From contig NZ_CP107985.1 in NCBI RefSeq assembly GCF_036108815.1, positions 6,386,058 through 6,450,057 of the forward strand: a stretch of DNA of 64,000 nt, written 5' to 3'. The stretch is from Streptomyces sp. NBC_00353 (GTDB lineage Bacteria > Actinomycetota > Actinomycetes > Streptomycetales > Streptomycetaceae). Positions 3,321 to 56,505 of the stretch are shown here, in pieces. Numbering within the stretch: position 1 is the first letter of the stretch; each line of letters begins with the position of its first letter. The notes beneath the pieces are model-generated. The model ran no database searches and was not told where the DNA came from. It saw only the letters and a program-made list of their open reading frames with translations. A program made the position numbers and the translations under genes.

Positions 3321-4124
3321 GTGAGGCAGCGGATACCGGTCAGGGTGCAGAGGAACCCGCGCGGGCGGCGCCTTGCCGCGCGCGGGCTGTGGTCGGGCGC
3401 CGAGGCGGTCGTGACCCTCGGTGTGGTGCTGCTGCTTCTCGTCGTCCATCAGCTGTGGTGGACCAATCGGCAGGCCAGGGCCGATGCCCGGCACAAGGTG
3501 CAGTCCCTGGAGCGGGAGTGGGGGCGGACGGGGGAGGGGGACGCCGGTGTTCCGTCCGCCCCGTCGGGCGAGGGCGCGGACGCGGACGCGGATACGGACA
3601 CGGATACGGCGGGGGAAGGCGGGGGAGCGCCGGCGGGTGGTGCGCGTACGGGAGCGGCTGCTGCGCCCCGCTGGGATCAGGCCTACGCCGTCATCCGTAT
3701 CCCGCGCCTGGGGCTCACCGCCCCCGTCGCCCAGGGCATCAGCAAGAGCGGCGTCCTCGACAAGGGGTACGTCGGGCACTATCCGCGCACCGCGCAGCCC
3801 GGTGGCGCCGGGAACTTCGCGCTAGCCGGGCACCGCAATACGCACGGTGAGCCGTTCCGCTACATCAATCGGCTGCGGCGCGGCGACCGGATCACCGTCG
3901 AGACCCGGCAGCGCGTGTACACGTACGTCGTCGACAAGACGCTGGCGCAGACCGCCGCCCGGGACAGCGGGGTCATCGCCGCCGTGCCGCGCAGCAATCT
4001 GAAGCCCGCCTTCGGGTACAGCGAGCCCGGTTCCTACGTGACGCTGACCACGTGCACGCCTGAATTCACCTCCCGTTACCGCCTTGTCGTGTGGGGGAAG
4101 CTGGCGGGTGTGCAGGAGCGGTAG
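3321..4124 (+). CDS. class E sortase (transpeptidase)
   Basis: Motifs AGHRNTHGEPF and active-site TLTTC (TLxTC). N-terminal membrane anchor present. GTG start at 3321. The upstream part of ORF 2703..4124 overlaps the SEC-C gene and was rejected. Confidence 0.75.
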   Translation: MRQRIPVRVQRNPRGRRLAARGLWSGAEAVVTLGVVLLLLVVHQLWWTNRQARADARHKVQSLEREWGRTGEGDAGVPSAPSGEGADADADTDTDTAGEGGGAPAGGARTGAAAAPRWDQAYAVIRIPRLGLTAPVAQGISKSGVLDKGYVGHYPRTAQPGGAGNFALAGHRNTHGEPFRYINRLRRGDRITVETRQRVYTYVVDKTLAQTAARDSGVIAAVPRSNLKPAFGYSEPGSYVTLTTCTPEFTSRYRLVVWGKLAGVQER

Positions 4125-4148
4125 CGGCGGTCACTAAGCTTTTCCGAC

Positions 4149-4337
4149 GTGCTCAGACGACGTCCGCAGTTGTTGTGGTTGCTGGTTCCCTACGTGCTGT
4201 ACCTGGGGGCGCTGCCGTTCGTGAACCGGGTCCGTCCCGTCGTGCTCGGACTGCCGTTCCTCTTCGTGTGGCTGCTCGGGGCGACCCTGCTGACACCCGT
4301 GGCGGTCTGGCTGACCCGGCGGGGGGACCGCCGGTGA
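4149..4337 (+). CDS. small membrane protein (DUF3311-like) coupled to the sodium:solute symporter
   Basis: 62 aa with two transmembrane segments and a GTG start. Its TGA overlaps the symporter GTG start (GTGA). This arrangement is typical for DUF3311/SSS pairs. Confidence 0.6.
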   Translation: MLRRRPQLLWLLVPYVLYLGALPFVNRVRPVVLGLPFLFVWLLGATLLTPVAVWLTRRGDRR

Positions 4338-5896
4338 ACGCCGCGGTCGCGACCTCCGTCTTCGGGGCCTTCATGGTGGCCACCGTCGCTCTCGGGCTCC
4401 TCGCCGTGCGAGGCCGCGGGAACAGGGGCCGTGACGGGCTTGCCGAGTGGTCCGTCGGCGGGCGCAGCCTCGGGACCGTCTTCATCTGGGTGCTGATGGC
4501 CGGCGAGGGCTACACCAGCTTCAGCTATCTCGGCGCCGCGGGATGGGGCTACAACTACGGGGCCCCCGTGCTCTATGTGGTGGCGTACATGTCCTGCGGT
4601 TACGCCGTCGGATATGTCGTCGGGCCGATGCTCTGGGCGTACGCGCGCCGGCACGGGCTCGTCGGGATCACCGACATGGTCGCGCACCGCTTCGGGCGGC
4701 CCTGGCTCGGCGCCCTCGTCGCCGTCCTCGCGACCGTGTTCCTGCTGCCGTACATCCAGCTGCAGATCACCGGCATGGGCGTCGTCGTCTCCACCATCTC
4801 GTACGGTGCCATCAGCCTGAACTGGGCGTACTTCATAGCCTTCGCCGTCACCACGGGTTTCGTCGTGGTCAGCGGACTGCGCGGCAGCGCCTGGGTGTCC
4901 GTGCTCAAGGACGTGCTGGTGATCGCCACTCTCGGGTTCCTCGCCCTCTACGTCCCCATGCACTACTTCGACGGGTACGGGCCCTTCCTGGACCGGCTCG
5001 TCACCGAGAAGAGCGAGTGGCTGGCCTTCCCCGGGCACGGCGACAGCGGGCTCGGGCAGGCGTGGTTCATCACCACCTCGTTCCTCAACTCCCTCACCGT
5101 GGTGATCTTCCCGACCACCGTTGCCGGCTACCTCGGCGCGAAGAACGCCGACGTCCTGCGCCGCAACGCGATGTGGCTGCCCGCCTACAACGTGCTGTTG
5201 TTCGTCCCGATGCTGCTCGGCATGGCCGCCCTCTTCGTCGTGCCGGGGCTCGTCGGCGCCGAGTCCAACCTCGCGCTCTTCGAGCTCGTCGTGGACTCGC
5301 TGCCCGCCTGGGCCGTCGGCGTCATCGGGGTGGCGGCCGCGCTGTCGTCGATCGTGCCCATGGCCGTCTTCATGCTCGTCATCGGCACCATGTGGGGGCG
5401 CAGCGTGCTCTCGCTCGTACCCCGCTGGCAGCAGCGGCAGAAGGGCGCCGCGCAGACCGTCGTCGTGGCCGCGGGCGTCATCGCGCTCGTGCTGACGTAC
5501 ACCGCGCCGAACACGCTGGTGCGGCTCTCTCTCGTCTCGTACGAGGGGATGGCGCAGCTGCTCCCCATGGTGCTGCTGGGACTGATGTGGCGGCGGCTGA
5601 CGCTGCTCGGTGCGATGGCCGGGCTGGTCGTGGGCGTGGGGGTGGTCTGCGGGTTCGTGTTCACCGGGAACGATCCGGTGTGGGGCGTGAACGCGGGCAT
5701 CGTCGCCCTCGGCGCCAACCTCGCCGTCGCGCTCGCGGTGACCTACGCCGGCCCGCGCGAGCACGACGACCGGCCGGACGGCGACGTGCTCGCGCGGGAC
5801 GAGCCGGGGGAGAGGCGGGAGGCCGGGGAGAGCCGGAGGCCGGAGCTCTCGGGGGTGGGCGTCAGCGAGGCGAGCGACGCTCCCGCAGGAGCATGA
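4334..5896 (+). CDS. sodium:solute symporter family transporter
   Basis: About 13 transmembrane segments with an SSF-like profile. Start reassigned to the GTG at 4334. Confidence 0.8.
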   Translation: MNAAVATSVFGAFMVATVALGLLAVRGRGNRGRDGLAEWSVGGRSLGTVFIWVLMAGEGYTSFSYLGAAGWGYNYGAPVLYVVAYMSCGYAVGYVVGPMLWAYARRHGLVGITDMVAHRFGRPWLGALVAVLATVFLLPYIQLQITGMGVVVSTISYGAISLNWAYFIAFAVTTGFVVVSGLRGSAWVSVLKDVLVIATLGFLALYVPMHYFDGYGPFLDRLVTEKSEWLAFPGHGDSGLGQAWFITTSFLNSLTVVIFPTTVAGYLGAKNADVLRRNAMWLPAYNVLLFVPMLLGMAALFVVPGLVGAESNLALFELVVDSLPAWAVGVIGVAAALSSIVPMAVFMLVIGTMWGRSVLSLVPRWQQRQKGAAQTVVVAAGVIALVLTYTAPNTLVRLSLVSYEGMAQLLPMVLLGLMWRRLTLLGAMAGLVVGVGVVCGFVFTGNDPVWGVNAGIVALGANLAVALAVTYAGPREHDDRPDGDVLARDEPGERREAGESRRPELSGVGVSEASDAPAGA

Positions 5897-8528: not shown

Positions 8529-9299
8529 ATGTCCGTCTTCATGTCCGCTTTCGCCGGCCTGGTCGGCTCCTTCGCCGACCTCCTCCAGCCGCTCTTCCAG
8601 GGCGCCGCCACGGCCGCCGCGATCGTCCTCTTCACCGCGCTGGTGCGGCTCGCCGTGCACCCCCTGTCGCGGGCCGCGGCGCGCGGGCAGAAGGCCCGCA
8701 CCAAACTCCAGCCGCAGATCGCCGAATTGCGCAAGAAGCACGGCAAGAACCCCGAGCGCATGCAGAAGGCGCTCATGGAACTGCACAAGGAGGAGAAGGT
8801 CTCGCCGCTGTCCGGCTGCCTGCCCAGCCTTCTCCAGATGCCGGCCTTCTTCCTGCTCTACCACCTCTTCTCCAGCCAGAAGATCGGCGGCGACCCCAAC
8901 GCGCTGCTCGGCCACGAGCTCTTCGGCGCCCCGCTCGGCGAGCGCTGGCACGACGCGCTGGCGCACGGCGGGCTGTTCGGCGCGCAGAGCGTCGTCTATC
9001 TCGGCCTCTTCGTGATCGTCGCCGCCGTCGCCACGTTCAACTACCGGCGTACGAAGCGTCAGCTCGCCGCAGCCCCGGCCACTCCCGCCACCGGGCCCGA
9101 CGGGCAGCCGATGCCGGGCATGGGCGCGATGACGAAGCTGATGCCGCTGATGTCCTTCTTCACGCTCGTCTCGGTCGCGTACGTGCCGCTCGCCGCCGCG
9201 CTCTACATCGTCACCAGCACCACCTGGACCGCGGTCGAGCGGACCGTCCTCTACCGCGACATGCCGGCCGCGGGCGCCGCCATGGCCACCGTGGCGTAA
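8529..9299 (+). CDS. YidC/Oxa1-family membrane protein insertase (short paralog)
   Basis: Conserved YidC core: LVRLAVHPLS...KLQPQIAELRKKHGKNPERMQKALMELHKEEKVSPLSGCLPSLLQMPAFFLLY. GGAGGG lies before the ATG at 8529. Confidence 0.8.
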   Translation: MSVFMSAFAGLVGSFADLLQPLFQGAATAAAIVLFTALVRLAVHPLSRAAARGQKARTKLQPQIAELRKKHGKNPERMQKALMELHKEEKVSPLSGCLPSLLQMPAFFLLYHLFSSQKIGGDPNALLGHELFGAPLGERWHDALAHGGLFGAQSVVYLGLFVIVAAVATFNYRRTKRQLAAAPATPATGPDGQPMPGMGAMTKLMPLMSFFTLVSVAYVPLAAALYIVTSTTWTAVERTVLYRDMPAAGAAMATVA

Positions 9300-9458
9300 G
9301 GGGCATGGCCACTGCGGCGCAGTCGCCGCGGCGAGTGCGCCGGTCCAGTGCGTGAACAGGGTCTTGCGGAGTGATCCGATGTCTTGGAGGATCGGCCAAG
9401 CCTGCGATGGCCGCCACCCATCCGACGGGCCCGATCTCGACGAAGGGGAGACAGACCG

Positions 9459-10319
9459 TTGAAGCTGCTTCGCGTGGGTACGGCAGGTGCGGAACGACCG
9501 GCGCTGCTGGACCAGGACGGAACGCTGCGTGACCTGTCGGGAATCGTCCCCGACATCGACAGCGACCTGCTCGCCGACGAGTCCGCGCTGGCCCGCGTAC
9601 GGGCCGCCGCGGCCTCGCCCGGCGAGCTGCCCGTACTCGATGCCGAAGGGCTCCGGGTCGGGCCGCCGCTCGCCCGGATCGGCAAGATCGTGTGCATCGG
9701 GCTGAACTACCACGACCACGCCACCGAGACCGGTGCGGCGATTCCGACCGAGCCGATCCTGTTCTTCAAGGCGCCGGACACCGTAGTGGGACCCGAGGAC
9801 ACCGTGCTGGTGCCGCGCGGCAGCCGCAAGACCGACTGGGAGGTCGAGCTCGCCGTCGTCATCGGCCGCACCGCCCGGTATCTGGACTCCGCCGAGGAAG
9901 CCCTCGGGCATGTCGCCGGTTACGCGGTCGCGCACGACGTCTCCGAGCGCGAGTTCCAGATCGAGCGCGGCGGCACCTGGGACAAGGGCAAGAACTGCGA
10001 GACGTTCAACCCGCTGGGGCCGTGGCTGGTGACGGCGGACGAGGTGCCCGACCCGCAGGCGCTTGCGCTGAAGCTGTGGGTCAACGGCGAGCTGAAGCAG
10101 GACGGCGCGACCGCCGACCAGATCTTCCCGGTGGGCGAGGTCGTCCGCTACCTCAGCCAGTTCATGACGCTGTACCCGGGCGATGTCATCAACACCGGTA
10201 CGCCGGCCGGGGTGGCCCTGGGGCAGCCGGAGCCCAAGCCGTATCTGAAGGCGGGCGACGTCGTCGAGCTGGAGGTCCAGGGGCTGGGACGGCAGCGGCA
10301 GGAGCTCAAGGACGCTTAG
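9459..10319 (+). CDS. fumarylacetoacetate hydrolase (FAH) family protein
   Basis: FAH-fold motifs GLNYHDHATE and VNGELKQDG. TTG start follows GGGGAG. Confidence 0.8.
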   Translation: MKLLRVGTAGAERPALLDQDGTLRDLSGIVPDIDSDLLADESALARVRAAAASPGELPVLDAEGLRVGPPLARIGKIVCIGLNYHDHATETGAAIPTEPILFFKAPDTVVGPEDTVLVPRGSRKTDWEVELAVVIGRTARYLDSAEEALGHVAGYAVAHDVSEREFQIERGGTWDKGKNCETFNPLGPWLVTADEVPDPQALALKLWVNGELKQDGATADQIFPVGEVVRYLSQFMTLYPGDVINTGTPAGVALGQPEPKPYLKAGDVVELEVQGLGRQRQELKDA

Positions 10320-10406
10320 CCGCGTAGCCGGCCAAGAGCGTCCTTGGGCGGTCAGAGATCGGAGGGGTGGGTCGCTGCTGGTGCAGCGACCCACCCCTCC
10401 GATGCG

Positions 10407-10886
10407 TCATCCGGCGATCGTGGTGGCGAACTGTTCCAGCGCCTCGACGACCAGCGCATGGTCGTCCGCCTGCGGCAGACCCGAGACCGTGACCGAGCCG
10501 ATCACGCCCGCTCCCTCCACCGCGATCGGGAACGAACCGCCGTGCGCGGCATACAGGTCCGGGTCCAGTCGCGAGGAGTCCTCGAACGTCGTCCCCTTCG
10601 CCCGGAACCGGGTCCCGACCAGGTACGAGCTCTCGCCGTACCGTTCGACCACTCTGCGTTTGCGGTCGATCCACGCGTCGTTGTCCGCGCTCGAACCGGG
10701 CAGCGCGGCATGGAACAGCTGCTGGGAGCCGCGCCGGATGTCGATCGCGACCGGCGCGTGCCGCCTGCGGGCCATGGAGACGAGCAGGCCGCCGAGGGCG
10801 TACGCGTCGTCGTAGCCGAAATGCGGCAGAGTCAGTCGGCGCTCCTGCGCGATGAGCTCGGAGATGGTCGGAGCGGTGGGGTTCAT
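10407..10886 (-). CDS. GlcG/HbpS-like (DUF336) heme-binding protein
   Basis: 159 aa with the GlcG-like pattern GGSFPIAVEGAGVIGSVTVSGLPQADDHALVVEAL. ATGA overlap with the upstream oxidoreductase gene. The 770-aa ORF in this frame is an artefact. Confidence 0.7.
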   Translation of the reverse strand: MNPTAPTISELIAQERRLTLPHFGYDDAYALGGLLVSMARRRHAPVAIDIRRGSQQLFHAALPGSSADNDAWIDRKRRVVERYGESSYLVGTRFRAKGTTFEDSSRLDPDLYAAHGGSFPIAVEGAGVIGSVTVSGLPQADDHALVVEALEQFATTIAG

Positions 10887-12046
10887 GCGGTCTGCTCCTC
10901 GGAAGCAGTGGGCAGGGTTACGGTGACGCCTTCGCGGGCCGAGCGGCGGGCGGCCTCGAGGACGTCCAGGGCCGCAGCGGCCTGCAGGGCCGTCACCGGA
11001 TTGTCGCCCTTGCCGCGCACCGCGTCGGCGACCGCCGCGTAGTACGCCGGGTAGTCGCCCGGCAGGGTACGGACCGGGACGCCGCCACCGGTCAGCGGCG
11101 ACTCGCCCGCACCGATCCGGCCCCACAGCGTCTCGGGCTCCTCGCCCCAGCCGTGAGCTGCGGCGGACGGGCGGTGGCCCTCGCGCAGGTCGGCCTCCTG
11201 CGGGTCCAGCCCGTACTTCACGTAACCGGCCTTGGAACCGAGCACCCGGAAGCGCGGGCCGAGCTGCGCCGTCGTGGCGCTGACGTACAGGTGCGAGCGG
11301 ACCCCGTTCGCATGGGTGATCGCCAGGAACGTGTCGTCGTCGGTGGCGGCGCCGGGGCGGCGCGCGTCGGACTCCGCGTACACCTGGACGGCCGGGCCGA
11401 ACAGTACGAGCGCCTGGTCGACGACATGGCTGCCCAGGTCGTACAGCAGTCCGCCGACCTCCTGCGGATCGCCCGACTCGCGCCAGCCGCCCTTCAGCTG
11501 CGGGCGCCACCGCTCGAAACGGGACTCGAAGCGCTGTACGTCGCCGAGCTCGCCGTCCTCGATCAGCCGGGCAAGCGTCAGGAAGTCGTTGTCCCAGCGG
11601 CGGTTCTGGAAGACCGAGAGCAGCAGGCCGCGCTCCTCGGCCAGCGCGGCGAGCGCGCGCGCCTCGGCCGCCGTACCGGCGATCGGCTTGTCCACGACGA
11701 CCGGCAGACCGGCCTCGAGCGCGGCGGTCGCGATCGGGACGTGGGTCTTGTTGGGGGAGGCGATCACAATCAGGTCGAGCGCGTCCGGGCCGCCCGCGCG
11801 GGCCCACAACTCGTCGGGCGACGCGGCGAACGAGACGTCGGGGAACTCGGCGCGGGCCTGAGCCCGCCGCTCCTCGTTCGACGTGACGACCGTGTCGAGG
11901 ACGAGGCCCTCGGTCGTGGCGATCAGCGGGGCGTGGAAGACGGAGCCCGCCAGGCCGTAGCCGACGAGTCCGACGCGGAGGGGGGTCTCGTGCGCGTGCG
12001 TCTGCTGCTGCGCCTCGGGAGTCGTGATGCCAGTCATGCAATCCAC
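10883..12046 (-). CDS. Gfo/Idh/MocA-family NAD(P)-dependent oxidoreductase
   Basis: Rossmann motif VGLVGYGLAGSVFHAPL and a typical C-terminal fold. Confidence 0.8.
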   Translation of the reverse strand: MDCMTGITTPEAQQQTHAHETPLRVGLVGYGLAGSVFHAPLIATTEGLVLDTVVTSNEERRAQARAEFPDVSFAASPDELWARAGGPDALDLIVIASPNKTHVPIATAALEAGLPVVVDKPIAGTAAEARALAALAEERGLLLSVFQNRRWDNDFLTLARLIEDGELGDVQRFESRFERWRPQLKGGWRESGDPQEVGGLLYDLGSHVVDQALVLFGPAVQVYAESDARRPGAATDDDTFLAITHANGVRSHLYVSATTAQLGPRFRVLGSKAGYVKYGLDPQEADLREGHRPSAAAHGWGEEPETLWGRIGAGESPLTGGGVPVRTLPGDYPAYYAAVADAVRGKGDNPVTALQAAAALDVLEAARRSAREGVTVTLPTASEEQTA

Positions 12047-29047: not shown

Positions 29048-29470
29048 GGGTCATCCCCCTGCACGCACTGGTCACTGCGTGATCGGTCGGTCGTCTCGTC
29101 CGCGGCGAATCCCCCTCGACCGCCGCGGGCGCATCGCTGGTGGGCCACCTTCCCCTGAGGAGTGGGATGGCGCCCTGCCGGTTGCAGGATGCCCCTCGGC
29201 ATCCGTCCATGAGCGGGACCCCCACCCCGCGGTACGGCAACCGGAACTTCCCCCGTGCTGTCCCAACTGCGCGTGTCATCGGCTCGGTTGAAGCCGATGA
29301 CCCCATGACAGGTTGTATGACCCAGGTCGTTATCGCAAGGGTGAAACGGGCGGTTAACCGGCCATATGTGCGATTTGGGTGACTCTTGCGGAGGGGCGCA
29401 CGGAGGCGTAAGGGCTCCGCGTACACGAACAAGACCCCCTCACGCTCGGTGAGGGGGTCTTGACTCTGCG

Positions 29471-29544
29471 TGCGCCGCCAGGGACTCGAACCCCGGACCC
29501 GCTGATTAAGAGTCAGCTGCTCTAACCAACTGAGCTAGCGGCGC
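29471..29544 (-). tRNA. tRNA-Lys (anticodon CUU)
   Basis: 74-nt cloverleaf read directly: acceptor GCGCCGC, D-arm GCTCAGTTGGTTAGAGC, anticodon loop CUCUUAA, T-arm GGGGTTCGAGTCCCC. CCA is not encoded. A hairpin at 29431-29461 lies downstream. Confidence 0.9.
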
Positions 29545-37124: not shown

Positions 37125-37257
37125 GCCAGGAAATATACGAGCGTTTAAAACAAGTGTCTAGTACGGACGTGTAACACGTTTGTATGGAACGACGGGCAGC
37201 AAAAAACGCAGTGGGCGGTCTACGTACAAGTACGTAGACCGCCCACTGCGTTGTCTG

Positions 37258-37331
37258 TGCGCCGCCAGGGACTCGAACCCCGGACCCGCTGATTAAGAGT
37301 CAGCTGCTCTAACCAACTGAGCTAGCGGCGC
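37258..37331 (-). tRNA. tRNA-Lys (anticodon CUU), copy 2 identical to copy 1
   Basis: Same 74 nt. A perfect 21-bp-stem terminator hairpin at 37207-37251 is followed by a T-run on the minus strand. Confidence 0.9.
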
Positions 37332-49059: not shown

Positions 49060-49150
49060 GCAGGATCACCGCCGGCGCGTGAGCAACCGGTCCCGCGGTG
49101 AAACGAAAACGAAGAAGCCCCCCGCTTGTGCGAGGGGCTTCTTCCGTCTG

Positions 49151-49224
49151 TGCGCCGCCAGGGACTCGAACCCCGGACCCGCTGATTAAGAGTCAGCTGC
49201 TCTAACCAACTGAGCTAGCGGCGC
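49151..49224 (-). tRNA. tRNA-Lys (anticodon CUU), copy 3
   Basis: Identical 74 nt. Downstream hairpin at 49111-49144 followed by a T-rich tract on the minus strand. Confidence 0.9.
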
Positions 49225-50111
49225 CTGCTGACGTCGTAGACCTTAGCACCCTGATCGGCGGGAGGAAAAATCGAAATCCGGGCCGTCGACGCGGGCGCCG
49301 AGCGGGTCACGCGTACACAGGCCCAGAGCAGTACGTCGGGGCCCGGCAGCCATGGGCTACGGGTGTCGGGAGCGACCACCCATCGGGGCCCGGGCGAGGT
49401 GGAACCGCAGGCCAGAGGCGGGACGGTCACCGCGTCGCCGGTGCCGTGACAGAGCAGCGGCGGGAACCTGTTCTCCTGGTCGTCCGGCCCTCCGGGCGCC
49501 TGCGGGTCGTGCTCCGTCACCGGCTCGGGGCGGCTGCCCCACTCCTCCCAGTCGAGCAGCGACGGCAGCCGCTGGGCGGTCCCGGGCGCGGCGAACAGCA
49601 GCATCCGCCCGCGGTGTGAGGCGACCGGCCCCGAGCCGGGCCCGTCGGCCCACAGGTGCTCCAGCATGCGCCGCCCGAAGAGCGCGGGCACATTGACCAC
49701 ATCGAACGCGGAGCCGCACGGCAGCACACCGGGCGAGCCGGGGTGGGCCTGCCACTGGGCGAGCGTGGAGCGCGGATAGGCCGTGGCGCCGGCGAGCCAG
49801 GCGGCGCCCGCAGCGGTGACCTGCGCGGTCTGATGCCCGGCTTGATTCCCGGGCTGGGGTCCGGCCTGGGTTCCGGTCCGGTCCCCGGTCTGGTCCCGCA
49901 GGGCGGCGAAGATGTCGACGCTGTGCTGGGACCCGGTGCCGGGGTACAGGGTCGATTGGTCTGGCAGCCATGCAGTCATGTGCACTGGTCTACCGGGAGT
50001 GACGGTCCGGATTCCAAGAGTTGCCGGAAATCGGGACAGGGTGGTGGGGGGAGGAGTATCTTGCCCGCGGGCATATGCCAGCGGGCTGTACCCGGAGTCA
50101 GCTCCGGGCAA
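49215..50111 (-). CDS. hypothetical protein, 298 aa, possible degenerate primase-polymerase-like
   Basis: Long ORF with coding-like bias. The 3' end overlaps the tRNA by 10 nt. There is weak resemblance to Prim-Pol cores (VLPCGSAFDVVNVP ... SHRGRMLLFAAPG). Start unsure (TTG 50111 or ATG near 49979). Confidence 0.45.
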   Translation of the reverse strand: MPGADSGYSPLAYARGQDTPPPTTLSRFPATLGIRTVTPGRPVHMTAWLPDQSTLYPGTGSQHSVDIFAALRDQTGDRTGTQAGPQPGNQAGHQTAQVTAAGAAWLAGATAYPRSTLAQWQAHPGSPGVLPCGSAFDVVNVPALFGRRMLEHLWADGPGSGPVASHRGRMLLFAAPGTAQRLPSLLDWEEWGSRPEPVTEHDPQAPGGPDDQENRFPPLLCHGTGDAVTVPPLACGSTSPGPRWVVAPDTRSPWLPGPDVLLWACVRVTRSAPASTARISIFPPADQGAKVYDVSRRR

Positions 50112-50129: not shown

Positions 50130-50471
50130 TCACGGTCTGGCGCCGCCCAGCAGGCTCCGGCCGAATTCGACCATCTTCTTCGCGTAGTCCTCGGTCCACT
50201 CCGCGCGCTCCGCGATGTCCGCAGTGGTCAGCCGGTCGAACCGGCGCGGGTCGGCCAGCTGGGCAGCGGCGATCGCCTGGAACTCGACCGCGCGATCGGT
50301 CGCGGCGCGGAATGCCAGGGTCAGCTCGGTGGCGCGGTCCAGCATCTCCTTCGGGTCGTCCATCGACTCCAGGTCGAAGAAGTGCTCGGGATCGGCGACC
50401 GCCGCCGACGGCTCGAAGAGCAGGGGCGCGGGGCGCAGCCGCTGCCGCTCGTTCCGCTCGGGTTGTGCCAT
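50130..50471 (-). CDS. small acidic hypothetical protein, 113 aa
   Basis: ATG preceded by a strong GGAGGA. The remainder of the 180-aa ORF is upstream junk. Confidence 0.55.
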   Translation of the reverse strand: MAQPERNERQRLRPAPLLFEPSAAVADPEHFFDLESMDDPKEMLDRATELTLAFRAATDRAVEFQAIAAAQLADPRRFDRLTTADIAERAEWTEDYAKKMVEFGRSLLGGARP

Positions 50472-50702
50472 GTGGTGTTCCTCCTTCGGTGGGCCCGACG
50501 GCCACCCTCTATTGTCCAACCCGCCGCAAGTGCGCTTCGGGGCGGTGCACGGGGCCAGTGCGCGGGAGCGCGCACCAACACACCTCCGGGCGCGACACGC
50601 GCCCCCGGTGGCCCATCGCATATGGCCCGACGACGTTACGGACGCTCGCACCGACGGTGCTGCGGCGCCCACCGCACCGGCGACGCTACGGCGCCCACCG
50701 CG

Positions 50703-52037
50703 TCACGGCGCCCACCGCACCCGGTGTTCCGCGAGATGTGCCAGGACCGCGTGGTTCGCCTCCCAGCCGTCGGGGAATTTCACCGTGACACCCAGCTGGA
50801 CCGGTTCCGTCGACGGATGTTCGTCCAGCAGGTCGGAGACGCCCTCGCGGCAGACCACGATGCAGGCATGGCGGTGCCGCGAGGCCAGGACGCACAGCCG
50901 GCCCGTCTCCAGGTGGAACGCCGTGGCGTCCGGGCGGCCGGACAGCGGGTGCAGGACCACCGTCACATCGAATTCGCGGCCCTGGAGCCGGTTCGCCGTG
51001 TCCACCGCCACACCCGTCACACCGAGCTCCGCGAGCGCCGCCCGCACCGCCGCGGCCTGGTCCCGGTGGGCGGTGCCGACCGCGACCCGGTCCGCCGTCA
51101 CCGCGGCGGGCTCGGGGGAGCGCTCGCTCGTCGCCGCGCCGCCCCGGTCCAGCAGACGGCGCACCACCAGGGCCACCGCCCGTACCGCCTCCGGATCCGT
51201 GCGCGGGGTGTGCCGGGCCGGAAGTTCGAGCAGACCCCAGCCGGACTCCGCGGCCTCGTCCAGCACCCGGTCCGGGGCGGAGCCGTCCGACGCGACACCG
51301 AACGACAGCCGCCGGTCGCCGTGGTCCGTGCCGCTGCGGAACGGGGTGTACGGGTAGAACGCGTCCGAGACCAGCGGCGCCGCCGACGCGGGCAGCCGCC
51401 ATGACACCGGCAGCCGGTGCTGCGGCAACTCCGGGTTGTGCGCCAGCAGTGTGGAGACCGCACTCGCCGACGGGTCGTACGACAACCCCGCCCACTGGTC
51501 CGCGCCGACGATCGAGAACGGGTCCAGCTGGCCGGGATCGCCGACGAAAAGCGCCCGTTCGAAGAGCCCGGCGACGGCCAGCAGCGCGTCCGAGCGCATC
51601 TGGTACGCCTCGTCGACGATCGCGTGCCCCCACGGCTCGACGTTCTTCACATGCGCCCACTTGGCGGCCGTCGAGATGACGACGTCAAGTCCGGCGAGGT
51701 CCGCCGCCTTTGCCGATTTCCGTACGTTGGCCAGGCCGTCCAGCACCTTGTCGTACGGGTCCGAGTCATTGCTGTGCAGCCTTCCGACCGGCAGCCCCGG
51801 GTCCTTCTCGGCCAGCCGCACCACCAAGTCGTCGACCTGGGCGTTGGTCTGTGCGACCACCATCAACGGGCGCCCGGCAGCGGCCAGTTCGAGCGCGGCG
51901 CGCACCACCAGCGTCGACTTGCCCGCGCCCGGCGGGGAGTCCACCACGATGCCGCGTGCCGTGCCGTGCAGCGTGTCGTCCAGGATCGCGGTGGTTGCCC
52001 GTCCCGCCGCCGCGCCCGGGTCGAATACGGCTGTCAC
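50703..52037 (-). CDS. SF1B helicase of the Upf1/Dna2 type (AAA_11/AAA_12)
   Basis: Walker A SPPGAGKST, Walker B VDEAYQ, and a C-terminal TANRLQGREFDVTVV motif. GTG start after GGAGGAC. GTGA overlap with the upstream gene. Confidence 0.8.
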   Translation of the reverse strand: MTAVFDPGAAAGRATTAILDDTLHGTARGIVVDSPPGAGKSTLVVRAALELAAAGRPLMVVAQTNAQVDDLVVRLAEKDPGLPVGRLHSNDSDPYDKVLDGLANVRKSAKAADLAGLDVVISTAAKWAHVKNVEPWGHAIVDEAYQMRSDALLAVAGLFERALFVGDPGQLDPFSIVGADQWAGLSYDPSASAVSTLLAHNPELPQHRLPVSWRLPASAAPLVSDAFYPYTPFRSGTDHGDRRLSFGVASDGSAPDRVLDEAAESGWGLLELPARHTPRTDPEAVRAVALVVRRLLDRGGAATSERSPEPAAVTADRVAVGTAHRDQAAAVRAALAELGVTGVAVDTANRLQGREFDVTVVLHPLSGRPDATAFHLETGRLCVLASRHRHACIVVCREGVSDLLDEHPSTEPVQLGVTVKFPDGWEANHAVLAHLAEHRVRWAP

Positions 52038-53641
52038 AGAGGGTCCTCCGCGGTCACGGGGTCGGGGTTCTCGGCGGCGGCGCCCGGCGGACCGCCGTGC
52101 GTCCAGGGGGTGTCCTCCGGGTCCGGCAGCTTCGGGCCGCCGCGCTGGTCGTGCTCGAACAGCGTCCACGCGATCCGGTCGCCCGGCTCCGGCAGCGAAC
52201 CCGGGGCCGGCTCCTTGCTCCGGCCCATCCGGTCGGTGATCCGCAGCACGAGCAGGACCTCCTCCGGTCCGGCGGCGTCCTCGGAGGCATACGCCACGAA
52301 CTCCGCGGTCTGCGGCCTGCCGTCCAGCGAGCGGTACACCTTCGTCCGCTCACCGAGATGCGGGCGCTCGTCCGTCCGGACCGTGACCAGCGGGCGCGGC
52401 GAGGGCCGCTTCGACTCGCTGTACGCCATCACCACCTCCGTCACCTCCCCGACAAACGCCTCGCCGGCCAGCCGCCGCCCGGCCAGCACCAGCGGATCGT
52501 CCAGCGCCTCCTGGGCCTCCAGCTGCGCCTGCGCCGTCTCCCGGGACGCCAGCTTCTGGGCTGCCGTCACCGCGTCGTCGCGGCGCGGCTGCGGCGGCTC
52601 CCCGGACCGCACCCGGTCCCGGTGGCCGGTGAACGACCAGCGGTCCCGGGTCCAGCGGTCCTCGGACCTGGCCCCGGGCGGCAGCTGCGCCATCAGGTCC
52701 AGCCCCCGCCACACGGCATCCCAGGTCGGCCGCAGCACCCCGGCGAGCAGCGATCCGATCTCCCGTTCGGCCGCTGTCAGTTCGGCCAGCCGGGCGTCGG
52801 CCGCGAGCCCGTCCTCGGCCGCCGCGAGTGCCGTGCGCGCCCGGTCGTACTTCTCGATCGCCGGTGCGAGCAGCCGGTTGTCGAATGCCGGGTCCGTGGC
52901 CGGACCGGCCGGCGGGCACACCAGCTGGCCGCCGCCGTCCCGCTCCAGCTCGGCCCGGAGCGCGGCCTCGGCCCCGGACTCGCCCGCCGGAGGGTCGATC
53001 CAGGCCAGCAGAGCCCCGAGATGCTGGTCCTCCAGCGTGGACTGCCCGGTCGCCCAGTGCCGGTTCAGCAGATCGGTCGCGGCGAGGAGCAGCGAGGAGC
53101 CCGGCACCCGGGCCCGCTCCCCGTAGTGCGTCAGCCAGCGGCCGAGCAGCGGGACACGGGCCGGGGCAGGGTACGGGGTGTCCGGATCGTCCTCGGCGGT
53201 ACGCCGGAACCGCATGGAACGGCCCAGCAGCCGCACGAAGTCGATACCCGCCCGGCTCGGCACGATCAACTGCGGTGCGTCCGTGCACAGTTCGACCTTG
53301 ACCTTGACCTTCTTGCCGGTCTCGGGATCGGTCTCGTTGCGCTCGGCCTGCTCGACCACGTCCGCGTACGACTCGATGTGCGGCAGGACCGCCTCGGCCA
53401 GGTCGGCGAGGAACGCGAACCGCAGGTCACGGTCGCGCGGCTGGGCGACAGTCAACAGCCGCGGCGCGTCCCGGTCGGTTCCGACGAGCGCGCCGAGCGG
53501 GGCGCCCGCCTCACCGGCGGTGGTCAGCGGTACGAGGACGAGCGGCCGGCCGCTGAGATGGCGGTGCAGAACGGTGGCCATCGGCTGTGCCCGCCCGCTC
53601 TCCACGGCCTCGAGCCGGGCCAGGGTGCTGATCAGTGACAT
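52034..53641 (-). CDS. uncharacterised 535-aa protein encoded between the nuclease and helicase genes
   Basis: Start at the ATG at 53641 after GGAGGG. The upstream 208 codons of the 743-aa ORF are G/R-rich junk. No motif recognised. Overlaps both neighbouring genes. Confidence 0.6.
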   Translation of the reverse strand: MSLISTLARLEAVESGRAQPMATVLHRHLSGRPLVLVPLTTAGEAGAPLGALVGTDRDAPRLLTVAQPRDRDLRFAFLADLAEAVLPHIESYADVVEQAERNETDPETGKKVKVKVELCTDAPQLIVPSRAGIDFVRLLGRSMRFRRTAEDDPDTPYPAPARVPLLGRWLTHYGERARVPGSSLLLAATDLLNRHWATGQSTLEDQHLGALLAWIDPPAGESGAEAALRAELERDGGGQLVCPPAGPATDPAFDNRLLAPAIEKYDRARTALAAAEDGLAADARLAELTAAEREIGSLLAGVLRPTWDAVWRGLDLMAQLPPGARSEDRWTRDRWSFTGHRDRVRSGEPPQPRRDDAVTAAQKLASRETAQAQLEAQEALDDPLVLAGRRLAGEAFVGEVTEVVMAYSESKRPSPRPLVTVRTDERPHLGERTKVYRSLDGRPQTAEFVAYASEDAAGPEEVLLVLRITDRMGRSKEPAPGSLPEPGDRIAWTLFEHDQRGGPKLPDPEDTPWTHGGPPGAAAENPDPVTAEDPL

Positions 53642-54786
53642 GGCGTTCCGCCCTCCGGAGCTGCCTGACCGGTCGCTCTTTCCAGCGCCTCCGCGCGCAG
53701 GGCCGCCGCGCGGCGCAGGGCCGCGACCGTCGGATCCGCCGGGTCGCCCTCCTTGCCCGCAGCCGCGGCCAGTACGTCGGTGACCGTCGTCAGACCCCCG
53801 AGCTCGCCCCGGACGCTCCGGCCCAGCGCCTGCACCGCACCGGCCGAGCGTGCCTTGGCCCGGCAGTGGAAGGCCAGTTCGCAGGCGGCCAGGCACTCCG
53901 GTGCGTATGCCGCCGTGACCGATTCGACCGCGGCCGTCAGCTCCTGCGGCGAACACTCCGGGTCGAAGGTGGTGCCCTCGGGCAGGGCGGCCGCGATCTC
54001 CTCGATCCGGGTCAGCCGGGTCAGCTGACGGCGGGTGACCGCGCGCTGCTTGCGTACGTCCACCACCGACGCCGTCGGCAGGTTGGAGAAGTCCTTCGGG
54101 CAGACCAGCAGCACCCGGTGGCCGACCTCCGCGCCCGGAGTGACCGCTGCGATCCGCTCCAGCGCCAGGACGTACACCGCGGACTGCCGGGCCGCCGCGC
54201 CGACCTTCGCCGCATCCGCGGAACTGTCGATCATGGGGAACGACTTGATCTCCACAACCGTCCACCGGCCGTCGGGGTGCACGACCACCGCGTCCGGCTC
54301 CAGATAGGCGGGCGAGCCCGCCACCTCCAGGGCCAGCATCGGATGGTCGAGCAGCGCCCAGCCGCCCGCGCCCGTCGCCTCCCGCAGCGCCAGCGCCGTA
54401 CGGGCCGCGCGTCCCTCGGGACCGGCTGCCGTCAGATCCGGTACCAGGACCTTGCGCGGCGCCTCGCTGCCGCCGCCGAGCCGCTCGTACAGCAGCCGCA
54501 TCAGCTCCGTACCGCCGTCGGCCTTGACCTTCGCCTCGAAGGCGTTGCCCCGCATGAACGCGAACTGCGACTGGCCGAACGCGGCAGGGGAGCCGAGTGC
54601 CGTCGCCAGCGCGGCCTTGTCCACCCCGGCGCCGTCCAGCAGGGCGCGCCGCTTGCAGCCGGGGTTCGCGGCGAGGGCGGCCAGCGCGCGGGCATCGAGC
54701 GGATGCGGGGCGACGGCCGGACCGCGCAGCTCAGCGAGCCGCTGCCGGAGCGCCGTCGTCTGCTGCGTCGCCCGATGCTGCGTCAT
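53632..54786 (-). CDS. Cas4/RecB-family PD-(D/E)xK nuclease with Fe-S cysteine cluster
   Basis: Motifs EPD...VVEIKS (PD/ExK) and QSAVY (QxxxY). One N-terminal Cys plus C-terminal CLAACELAFHC. Start is uncertain between the ATG at 54786 and the TTG at 54861. It overlaps the PAP2 gene tail. Confidence 0.7.
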   Translation of the reverse strand: MTQHRATQQTTALRQRLAELRGPAVAPHPLDARALAALAANPGCKRRALLDGAGVDKAALATALGSPAAFGQSQFAFMRGNAFEAKVKADGGTELMRLLYERLGGGSEAPRKVLVPDLTAAGPEGRAARTALALREATGAGGWALLDHPMLALEVAGSPAYLEPDAVVVHPDGRWTVVEIKSFPMIDSSADAAKVGAAARQSAVYVLALERIAAVTPGAEVGHRVLLVCPKDFSNLPTASVVDVRKQRAVTRRQLTRLTRIEEIAAALPEGTTFDPECSPQELTAAVESVTAAYAPECLAACELAFHCRAKARSAGAVQALGRSVRGELGGLTTVTDVLAAAAGKEGDPADPTVAALRRAAALRAEALERATGQAAPEGGTPCH

Positions 54787-55678
54787 CGGTGGAGTCTGCG
54801 GAGGAGGTCCGCTGGCCGGGGATTCGCTCACCCGCGGAAGTCTTGCATCCGGCACTGACAATCGGGGACTTCGTGGCCGATGCGGCTGGTGCGAACCGGG
54901 CCTGTACCGCGACCTTGACCCGGTCGACGAGCCGCATGACCGGCCAGGTCAGCAGCGCTCCGACGGCCATCACGGCAGCGCCCGCGACCGCGTCGAGGAA
55001 GTAGTGGTTGGCCGTGCCCATCACGACGATCGTGGTGACCAGCGGGTACATGACGCCCGCGGCGCGTACCAGCGGGTGCCGCGCGTGACGCCAGAGCAGG
55101 ATCCCGCACCACAGCGCCCAGCCGACGTGCAGACTCGGCATCGCGGCGTACTGGTTGGTCATCCAGCCCATCCCGCGCGGCGCGCTCGCCTCGGTGCCCC
55201 ACCAGCCGTACGAGCTGTACTGGGCCATGGTGTCGACGAAGCCGTGCGTGGCGTGCAGCAGCCGCGGCGGGCAGGTCGGCAGCAGCGCGAAGCCGACCAG
55301 GCCGAGCAGTGTGGAGGTCATCAACCAGGTGCGGGCGGTGCGGTACACGGCGGCTCGGCGCCGGTAGATCCAGATCAGGACGGCCGGGGTGACCAGGTAG
55401 TGCAGTGAGGCGTAGGCGAAGTCGGCGGGTATGCCGATGGACGGGTGGGCGGTCATCAGCCGGTTGAGCGGGTGCTCCGCGTTGAGGAAGAGCGTCTTCT
55501 CCAGATGCAGTATCCGCAGCCCGTGGTCCACAGCGGTCGACACATCGCTGCGGACCAGCAGCCGGCCCGCCGAGTAGACCGCGTACACGACCGCGATCAG
55601 CGGCAGCTCGGCCCACCAGCGAGGCCGGTGGCTCGGCGCGGACGCGGTGGCAAGCGGCATTCGGAAGCTCTCCATCAT
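54731..55678 (-). CDS. PAP2-superfamily membrane phosphatase-like protein
   Basis: Multi-transmembrane protein with the PAP2 motifs PSLHVGWA and ANHYFLD. Low-complexity C-terminal tail. Confidence 0.7.
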   Translation of the reverse strand: MMESFRMPLATASAPSHRPRWWAELPLIAVVYAVYSAGRLLVRSDVSTAVDHGLRILHLEKTLFLNAEHPLNRLMTAHPSIGIPADFAYASLHYLVTPAVLIWIYRRRAAVYRTARTWLMTSTLLGLVGFALLPTCPPRLLHATHGFVDTMAQYSSYGWWGTEASAPRGMGWMTNQYAAMPSLHVGWALWCGILLWRHARHPLVRAAGVMYPLVTTIVVMGTANHYFLDAVAGAAVMAVGALLTWPVMRLVDRVKVAVQARFAPAASATKSPIVSAGCKTSAGERIPGQRTSSADSTDDAASGDAADDGAPAAAR

Positions 55679-55908: not shown

Positions 55909-56505
55909 ATGGCACCGCGTATCCTGCTCGCCCGGCACGGCCAGACGGAATGGTCCGTCAAGGGCAATCACACCGGCAGGACGGACATTCCTCTGCTCGA
56001 CGCGGGCCGCGCGGGCGCCAAGCTGCTGGGCGAGCGGCTGCACCGCGGACCGTGGGCGGACCTGCCGGGCCTGGAGGTCCGCACCAGCCCGCTCGTCCGC
56101 GCCAGGGAGACCTGCGACCTGGCGGGCTTCGCGGACCGGGCGCAGCCGTGGGACGCGCTCATGGAGTGGGACTATGGGGCGTACGAGGGCATGACGCCGG
56201 CCGAGATCCAGGCGATCCGGCCGGGCTGGTTCATCTGGCGCGACGGGGTACCGGACGGCGAGACCCTCTACGAGCTGTCCGCCCGTGCGGACGAGATCGT
56301 CGACTGGGCGCGCTCGGCCGAACGCGACGTGCTGGTCTTCGCCCACGGTCACATCCTGCGGGCGCTGGGGGCGCGCTGGCTGGGCGAGGACGTGTCGTTC
56401 GCGTCCCGCATCCGCCTGGACCCGACGTCGCTGTCGGTGCTCGGATGGGCATACGGGGCACCGGCCCTCGAACGCTGGAACGACACGGGCCACCTGGACC
56501 GGTGA
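55909..56505 (+). CDS. histidine phosphatase (phosphoglycerate-mutase-like) family protein
   Basis: Catalytic motif LARHGQTEW and a second His in AHGH. Confidence 0.85.

Follow-up and report, generated by a model that had tools for sequence, protein, structure and literature searches.

A single-chain, Dna2-like iron-sulphur (Fe-S) helicase-nuclease, Bad, has been described from the bacterium Geobacillus stearothermophilus (PMC7430649). Here we describe a locus of Streptomyces sp. NBC_00353 in which a comparable set of domains is distributed over three adjacent minus-strand genes, called A, B and C. The locus lies in a stretch of 64,000 nucleotides (nt; NZ_CP107985.1, positions 6,386,058 to 6,450,057), referred to as the window, and positions are counted from its first nucleotide. 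A encodes a nuclease of the Cas4/RecB fold, C a superfamily 1B (SF1B) helicase of the Upf1/Dna2 type, and B a middle protein of 535 residues (Table 1). Together they are predicted to constitute an undescribed Dna2-like helicase-nuclease made of separate subunits, with a probable role in repair. It belongs to a mechanistic kind that is already known, the helicase-nuclease machines of the Dna2/Cas4/AddAB world. Three features set it apart: the division over several genes, the presence of a pseudo-exonuclease among the subunits, and a fourth component, Z, that is optional. A preliminary description of the locus had proposed that nuclease and helicase reproduce the domain content of Dna2, split across genes and joined by an extra middle protein, and this proposal stands. 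Literature searches (Cas4-like/SF1B/actinobacteria, SCO3374 and motif strings) found no published description of the family, and no Pfam or NCBIfam model matches A, B or Z above threshold.

Whereas Dna2 and Bad are single polypeptides, the present genes are separate and overlap at their stop and start codons, with partial fusions of A to B and of B to C in relatives. The DnaQ-like pseudo-exonuclease domain contributed by B is not known from Dna2 or Bad, sequence similarity to them is limited to generic helicase motifs, and no OB/alpha1 domain was identified here. The fold, catalytic motifs and cysteine pattern of A are common to Cas4 and to the nuclease domains of AddB, AdnAB and RecB. A differs from this group in being a free-standing protein of 399 residues with extra helical N- and C-terminal regions, in having no CRISPR context, and in having an SF1B rather than an SF1A (UvrD-like) partner. 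RecC and AddB are similar to what is proposed for B, in that a helicase-nuclease keeps a dead enzyme fold for structural or DNA-binding purposes. There the dead enzyme is a helicase or a PD-(D/E)xK nuclease; the dead fold of B is instead that of a DEDD-type, RNase H-like exonuclease, comparable to the inactive exonuclease domain of Pol alpha. Nhi-like proteins and Mokosh MkoA/MkoC also combine SF1B helicase chemistry with a nuclease. They differ from the present system, which is multi-gene, has a different nuclease family arrangement and two proteins (A and B) that match no hidden Markov model, and is located in the core genome and not in an island.

Helicase and Nuclease

C is predicted to be an intact, minimal SF1B motor of the Upf1/Dna2 type, the class to which it was first assigned. 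It exceeds the Pfam cut-off (27 bits each) for both AAA_11 (42.5 bits) and AAA_12 (30.6 bits), and helicase motifs I, II, III, V and VI (GAGKST, DEAYQ, GDPGQL, TANRLQGRE and RLCVLASRHR) can be read from its translation. The best sequence matches in the PDB are IGHMBP2 and DNA2. In PADLOC-DB v2, C gives weak, generic helicase matches, the best being Mokosh MkoA and MkoC, and A and B give none, in agreement with the preliminary finding that the gene set fits no described defence architecture.

The core of A is a restriction-endonuclease-like fold, common to Cas4, RecB, Dna2 and lambda exonuclease, and its nearest nucleases (Cas4, RecE, MGME1, Dna2, RecB, and EXO5) are all DNA exonucleases. The catalytic residues D180, E194-x-K196 (E-x-K-S) and Q216-x3-Y220 (QxxVY) are invariant in an alignment of 75 homologues, as are C59 (NPGC), GQSxFAxxRGxxFE, LEPD (containing D180) and C313-x3-C317-x5-C323. 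The E-x-K and QxxxY motifs and the 1+3 cysteines, which had been read from the window alone, thus recur in all 75 homologues. A is thereby confirmed as a nuclease of the Cas4/RecB type at the level of fold and motifs, with a predicted 4Fe-4S cluster. Its score against Pfam PDDEXK_1 (15.9 bits) is below the cut-off of 22, and neither a sequence search nor a profile search against PDB sequences gave a match, so that the kinship of A is visible in its fold and motifs only. In an A-B fusion from a metagenome (P0194), the E-x-K motif is replaced by IGVRT; the nuclease may be inactive in some fused variants.

The Middle Protein

The preliminary description recognised no motif in B and made its proposal depend on the start codon at 53641 and on the gene being coding. 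B homologues form more than 3600 clusters; clustering at 50% leaves 576 representatives, the most distant of them about 30% identical along the whole protein. The N-terminal MSxLxxL is kept across the family, and the structure is predicted with confidence (pLDDT 88.7, pTM 0.87). The many homologues, the conserved N-terminus and the confident model show that the start at 53641 is right and that B is a real gene.

B has no usable match in Pfam, NCBIfam, PADLOC or the PDB, the last searched by sequence and by profile, and weak matches to GPAT_C and betaine aldehyde dehydrogenase were judged to be noise. The model now provides what the sequence did not: a DnaQ-like (RNase H-fold) domain at residues ~1-245, a long-helix stalk at ~250-391, and a C-terminal beta-barrel at ~395-493, whose structural matches include Sen1 and SETX. 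The tail carries an invariant PWTHGGPP motif. In a family alignment of 48 sequences, no invariant Asp or Glu is found in residues 1-245, where E204 is the sole near-invariant acidic residue. The DEDD site is therefore taken to be absent. As modelled, the N-terminal domain is an exonuclease-like fold without the catalytic acidic residues, and B is not classed with the active exonucleases. As a putative scaffold, it would extend the small set of inactive enzymes known to serve this purpose in helicase-nuclease machines by one of the DEDD exonuclease type.

A, B and C as One Unit

The window has a G+C content of about 70%, and frame analysis of G+C at third codon positions supports five consecutive minus-strand genes between 49215 and 54861 as coding; a sixth precedes them. 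The tight packing and coupling of A, B and C that had been noted at the outset is confirmed at both junctions. The TGA of A (53632-53634) and the ATG of B (53641) give a 10-nt overlap, with GGAGG 10 nt upstream, and the stop codon of B and the GTG of C (52037) share the tetranucleotide GTGA (52034-52037), with GGAGGA upstream. The order A-B-C is strictly kept in every genome examined. Natural fusions are found in relatives, joining B to C (P0165, 933 residues) or A to B (P0253, 882 residues; P0194, 713 residues). The overlapping codons, the conserved order and the fusions are three independent links between A, B and C, and indicate that their products would form one complex. When joined in this order, a predicted Fe-S nuclease is followed by a putative stalk/barrel scaffold and then by an SF1B helicase. 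This would parallel the succession of nuclease, barrel and helicase in Dna2, whose nuclease and helicase are among the matches of A and C, and also the single-chain Bad.

Genes D and E, counted at first as part of a five-gene unit, are separable from the triad. The gap between C and D (231 nt) holds unrelated inserts in other species, and D and E are not found beside triads outside Streptomyces; they were rejected as operon members. D is a separate transcription unit and a conserved Streptomyces neighbour. The gap appears to be an insertion hot spot, occupied at seven loci (L009, L013, L017, L025, L064, L074, and L075) by inserts that include TetR regulators, a peroxiredoxin-like protein, an MFS transporter, a radical-SAM protein and a DUF-type protein.

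Conservation in Streptomyces and Other Actinomycetes

In a scan with one genome per species, at least 501 Streptomyces genomes encode B. Loci from 80 of these species were sampled for synteny, 67 of them with full flanks. The order PAP2-A-B-C-D-E is kept in all 80, and the wider neighbourhood (a TPR/XRE regulator, a histidine phosphatase, PAP2, A to E, a 452-residue protein and a PAS-GGDEF-EAL protein) in 55-67 of the 67. Within the segment no protein is better conserved than C, with a median identity in Streptomyces of 94%; the values for B and A are 86% and 84%. No integrase, mobility gene or island boundary was seen near the window copy. The triad is evidently conserved by vertical descent in the Streptomyces core chromosome.

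The preliminary description had presented the locus as a candidate defence system adjacent to a tRNA. The tRNA-Lys that directly follows E is itself conserved in position in other Streptomyces, and the triad lies on its 5' side, opposite to the side at which tRNA-targeting elements insert. The tRNA is a conserved neighbour, not an integration scar, and this part of the proposal is not upheld. The preliminary description had also raised the prospect of a universal core operon with a described role in repair; the conserved, syntenic core operon was found, the described role was not.

The triad is present in Streptosporangium, Sphaerisporangium, Nonomuraea, Actinomadura, Thermostaphylospora, Micromonospora, and Plantactinospora, and in metagenome-assembled genomes of Actinomycetota, where the source annotations read "hypothetical" or "secreted protein" only. 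The homologue searches made did not reveal the family outside a subset of actinomycete lineages.

The Upstream Promoter-like Element

The region upstream of A contains a conserved element of about 65 nt, which was recognised by an in-frame "peptide", LSVPDARLPRVSE, that is conserved between species in codons rare for the genome; these end in A or T (TTG TCA ... GAT GCA AGA CTT), which is atypical here. The element contains TTGTCAGTG (54861-54853), a spacer of 8 nt, the hexamer AAGACT (54844-54839), a further 7 nt, and GTG (54831-54829). Its columns are at least 90% identical across the 80 Streptomyces loci, with identity in the flanks falling to 40-70%. The pattern TTGTCAG(T/C)(G/A)-N8-(A/G/C)AGACT is present at every one of these loci, and each has the GTG exactly 7 nt past the hexamer and in frame with A. 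The intervening Pro-rich linker varies among 20 lengths, from 60 to 174 nt, and never contains a stop codon.

A most likely begins at this GTG (54831), and not at TTG 54861 as had been assumed. The start given by NCBI for A homologues of 99% identity is equivalent to GTG 54831, yielding 399 residues that begin MSESPASGPPPQ; TTG 54861 and ATG 54786 were ruled out in its favour. An element with a -10-like hexamer followed after 7 nt by a start codon, and without a Shine-Dalgarno sequence, has the layout of a leaderless mRNA, and the mRNA of A is probably leaderless.

The closest described promoters are those of the PafBC/RecA-NDp type, RecA-independent promoters of Actinobacteria that respond to DNA damage and are bound by PafBC. 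In Mycobacterium tuberculosis, the PafBC motif is TGTCGG/TGTCAG-10N-TA-3N-T (PMC8151990), and RecA-NDp promoters have been reported upstream of Streptomyces recA and of the ultraviolet-inducible gene SCO6735 (PMC5087735). The element matches the PafBC motif exactly in its upstream half and in spacing, and its hexamer, of the form (A/G/C)A-N3-T, deviates in the first base. As in those promoters, TGTCAG is followed after 10 nt by a -10-like hexamer whose second base is A and whose sixth is T, directly upstream of the gene and of an apparent leaderless start. Gamulin et al. reportedly wrote the RecA-NDp motif in 2004 as tTGTCRgtg-8nt-TAnnnT. A strict RecA-NDp expression (with TANNNT) has no match upstream of A, and an Rfam search over the region found no cis-regulatory RNA. 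That A, B and C are damage-inducible through a promoter of this type is a well-motivated prediction. A similar arrangement, TGTCCG-N10-TACCCT-N7-GTGAG, is found about 150 nt upstream of A in Thermostaphylospora.

Some further observations concern the same region. The Thermostaphylospora locus (L081) encodes a PafC-like regulator with HTH, WYL and WCX domains two genes upstream of A (3661-4626) and close to the TGTCCG-N10-TACCCT element, which may be a coincidence. In the window, an SOS-box-like sequence, TCGAACGCTGGAACGA, occurs on the plus strand at 56468-56483, within the 3' end of the histidine-phosphatase gene, probably by chance. An apparent insertion of 840 nt between motif and A at one Streptomyces locus (L061, 4120-4866) proved to be a scaffold gap, a run of N with duplicated flanks. 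The last ~130 nt of the PAP2_3 open reading frame (54731-54861) overlap with the element and with A over its first 100 nt. Conservation of this tail is poor, and the true PAP2 stop may therefore sit further upstream; a few loci that bear the element have no detected PAP2 homologue upstream of A.

Four-gene Relatives

The system exists in two versions: a three-gene chromosomal version, fixed in Streptomyces, and a four-gene version, chromosomal elsewhere and carried on Streptomyces linear plasmids, where it is surrounded by genes for DNA-end processing and defence. In the latter, a fourth coupled gene, Z, precedes the triad. This arrangement is found in Micromonospora, Actinomadura and Nonomuraea, on several contigs from metagenomes and, as a divergent second copy, in some Streptomyces; Z is absent from the Streptomyces core loci. 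Z has no model in PADLOC, Pfam or NCBIfam, and D was rejected as a diverged Z (hhalign probability 0.3%).

The Streptomyces plasmid copies share about 40% identity with the window genes and lie 5-30 kilobases (kb) from the end of the record on three plasmids: L088 (NZ_CP027023.1, recorded as circular), and the linear L089 (NZ_CP060826.1) and L090 (NZ_CP108489.1). They are transcribed divergently from SbcCD and followed downstream either by a complete Wadjet JetABCD or by a helicase-related gene and IS701. In Micromonospora cremea (L082), a restriction-type gene of 779 residues with a GmrSD_N (DUF262) domain is inserted between B and C (8577-10916), and an SNF2 helicase follows C. A further locus (L084) adjoins an SF2 helicase with an HA domain.

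Z-type loci have an upstream signature of their own (Table 1), in which CTGGAA/CTGGTA occurs two or three times at intervals of 10-11 nt and a TANNNT hexamer closes the series, 6-7 nt ahead of the ATG of Z. The start of Z looks leaderless, and the signature runs from Micromonospora to the Streptomyces plasmids. The Nonomuraea copy is of the Z type and lacks the TGTCAG motif.

Proposed Function and Alternatives

We consider it most probable, at roughly 55% for the reading as a whole, that A, B and C form a heteromeric Dna2-like helicase-nuclease that serves chromosomal DNA repair and is induced by damage. The part of this reading that concerns composition and complex is much firmer than the part that concerns the biological role. 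C would translocate 5' to 3' on single-stranded DNA (ssDNA), the polarity characteristic of SF1B helicases, and A would degrade the strand that C feeds to it. B may bridge the two, supplying in trans the barrel-and-stalk module that Dna2/Upf1-like helicases carry in cis, and its dead exonuclease domain may act as a DNA-binding scaffold, by analogy with RecC and AddB. The targets would be the cell's own ssDNA ends or flaps, and the process either the resection of ends or the processing of flaps or gaps. The leaderless, PafBC/RecA-NDp-type promoter would raise expression after DNA damage. The repair-gene neighbours of relatives, which adjoin SbcCD, are counted for a role in repair.

Several points weigh against this reading. 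The literature searches brought up no experiment on any member of the family, so that enzymatic activity, polarity, assembly into a complex and induction by damage are inferences throughout. The nAGACT hexamer never begins with the consensus T but with one of the other three bases, in which the element departs from known PafBC/RecA-NDp promoters, and the bare motif is not rare, with 0.45 matches expected per window. An SOS box was looked for upstream of A and not found. The near-invariance of the element could stem in part from dual coding with the tail of the PAP2 reading frame. Relatives of the Z type lack the TGTCAG element and are often in variable, defence-rich contexts; besides those described above, such loci have Dcm/Vsr, an N6/N4 methylase or a Mu transposase in their vicinity. 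Finally, the PafBC motif of Mycobacterium smegmatis is not obviously conserved in Streptomyces venezuelae (PMC9380542).

A broader version of the repair reading takes in the whole family, and is put forward tentatively. The A-B-C machine would be actinomycete-wide, with Z in most other lineages, and in Streptomyces would be wired to PafBC through a leaderless promoter, providing a resection or flap pathway besides AdnAB; the plasmid relatives would work with SbcCD at the ends of linear replicons or in defence.

Anti-phage or anti-plasmid defence, in which the complex would recognise invading DNA and degrade it and of which the chromosomal Streptomyces copy would be a fixed or domesticated member, is the alternative that survives best, and is nonetheless unlikely. 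It draws on the plasmid relatives, placed between SbcCD and Wadjet JetABCD, on the methylase, Dcm/Vsr and transposase neighbours just mentioned, on the GmrSD_N insertion in M. cremea, and on the Mokosh proteins as the best PADLOC matches of C. The window copy, however, is part of a conserved core segment at 80 of 80 loci, without integrase or island boundaries, and evolves slowly, as the identity of C illustrates. A, B and Z match no PADLOC model, no phage record contains a homologue of the family, and the upstream element resembles a promoter of the DNA-damage type. The preliminary description had left the choice between defence and DNA processing open; for the window copy, the second half of that proposal is favoured and the first is not.

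Somewhat less likely again is a constitutive enzyme of replication, acting on flaps or Okazaki fragments or at stalled forks as a functional analogue of eukaryotic Dna2. The predicted content of the system matches Dna2 in its Fe-S PD-(D/E)xK nuclease, its barrel and its SF1B helicase, and its conservation in the core is very high. A general replication factor would not be expected to be confined to a subset of actinomycete lineages, however, which is where the searches made found the family, and the promoter-like element points to inducible expression.

The position of the plasmid copies near plasmid ends, one beside a helicase-related gene, and the SF2 helicase with an HA domain beside L084 would suit a function in the maintenance of linear replicons or in conjugal transfer, for example in the processing of telomeric or terminal DNA. 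This is quite improbable. The window copy is not terminal, and its surroundings are housekeeping and regulatory genes of the core. In four other genera (Micromonospora, Actinomadura, Nonomuraea and Thermostaphylospora) the triad is on the chromosome as well, and the record of Nonomuraea gerenzanensis, the sole one of these that states a topology, is circular, which speaks against a function bound to linear replicons. Least likely is an RNA helicase-nuclease for RNA surveillance or processing. RNA is a frequent substrate of Upf1-like SF1B helicases, IGHMBP2 is among the nearest solved structures for C, and the barrel of B matches Sen1 and SETX, but the nearest nucleases to A act on DNA, SbcCD adjoins some relatives, and the upstream element resembles a promoter of the DNA-damage type.

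The interest of the repair reading follows from its setting. Streptomyces is not known to have RecBCD and relies on AdnAB, and has a linear, highly recombinogenic chromosome whose repair is incompletely understood. A second, universally retained helicase-nuclease would be an obvious repair candidate for genetic tests. The conserved element offers a concrete case on which to ask whether a PafBC/RecA-NDp regulon operates in Streptomyces, a question left open by earlier work (PMC9380542). The contrast between a three-gene core version and a four-gene plasmid version beside SbcCD and Wadjet offers a tractable example of a single module that may have a housekeeping existence in one setting and a mobile or defence-associated one in another. 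A new defence system would be the more exotic find; the family nevertheless represents a widely conserved and experimentally tractable gap in actinomycete DNA repair, together with a regulatory prediction.

Features of the Window

The positions of the genes and elements discussed are collected in Table 1.

Table 1. Genes and elements of the window, and sites of the Z-type signature at related loci.
Feature	Position	Strand	Description
Gene A	53632..54831	-	Cas4/RecB-fold PD-(D/E)xK nuclease, 399 aa, 1+3 cysteines, variable Pro-rich N-terminal linker
Gene B	52034..53641	-	535-aa putative scaffold protein
Gene C	50703..52037	-	Minimal SF1B (Upf1/Dna2-type) helicase core (predicted), 444 aa, GTG start
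Gene D	50130..50471	-	Small acidic protein, 113 aa, strong ribosome-binding site; Streptomyces neighbour outside the triad
Gene E	49215..49979	-	Prim-Pol-like, 254 aa; neighbour outside the triad
tRNA-Lys(CTT), copy 3 of 3	49150..49224	-	Three identical copies in the window
PAP2_3 gene	54731..55678	-	Membrane phosphatase family; upstream of A, unrelated neighbour; Pfam E 5.6e-63
Upstream element, ~65 nt	54796..54862	-	Column conservation across 80 Streptomyces loci
Z signature, L082	4974-5070
Z signature, L083	4660-4798
Z signature, L084	5844-5975
Z signature, L085	4790-4956
Z signature, L087	4900-5054
Z signature, L088	2150-2320
Z signature, L089	6844-6980
Z signature, L090	10589-10723
Z signature, L091	2780-2931

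The early observations on the two genes downstream of the triad are borne out. D begins at ATG 50471, with the ribosome-binding site GAAGGAGGA before the start codon. E begins at ATG 49979, and its last codons and stop run into the third tRNA-Lys copy. E scores 27.8 bits against Pfam Prim-Pol (cut-off 22.8) and 60.1 bits against NCBIfam SCO3374_fam, which is below the cut-off of 110; a literature search on SCO3374 gave nothing relevant.

The three tRNA-Lys(CTT) copies (29470-29544, 37257-37331, and 49150-49224, all on the minus strand) are identical in sequence and 8-12 kb apart, with metabolic and regulatory genes between them (MFS, IclR, dehydrogenase, luciferase-like, and GGDEF-EAL). All three have a common 8-nt leader, GTCAGCAG, and each has a hairpin terminator of its own.

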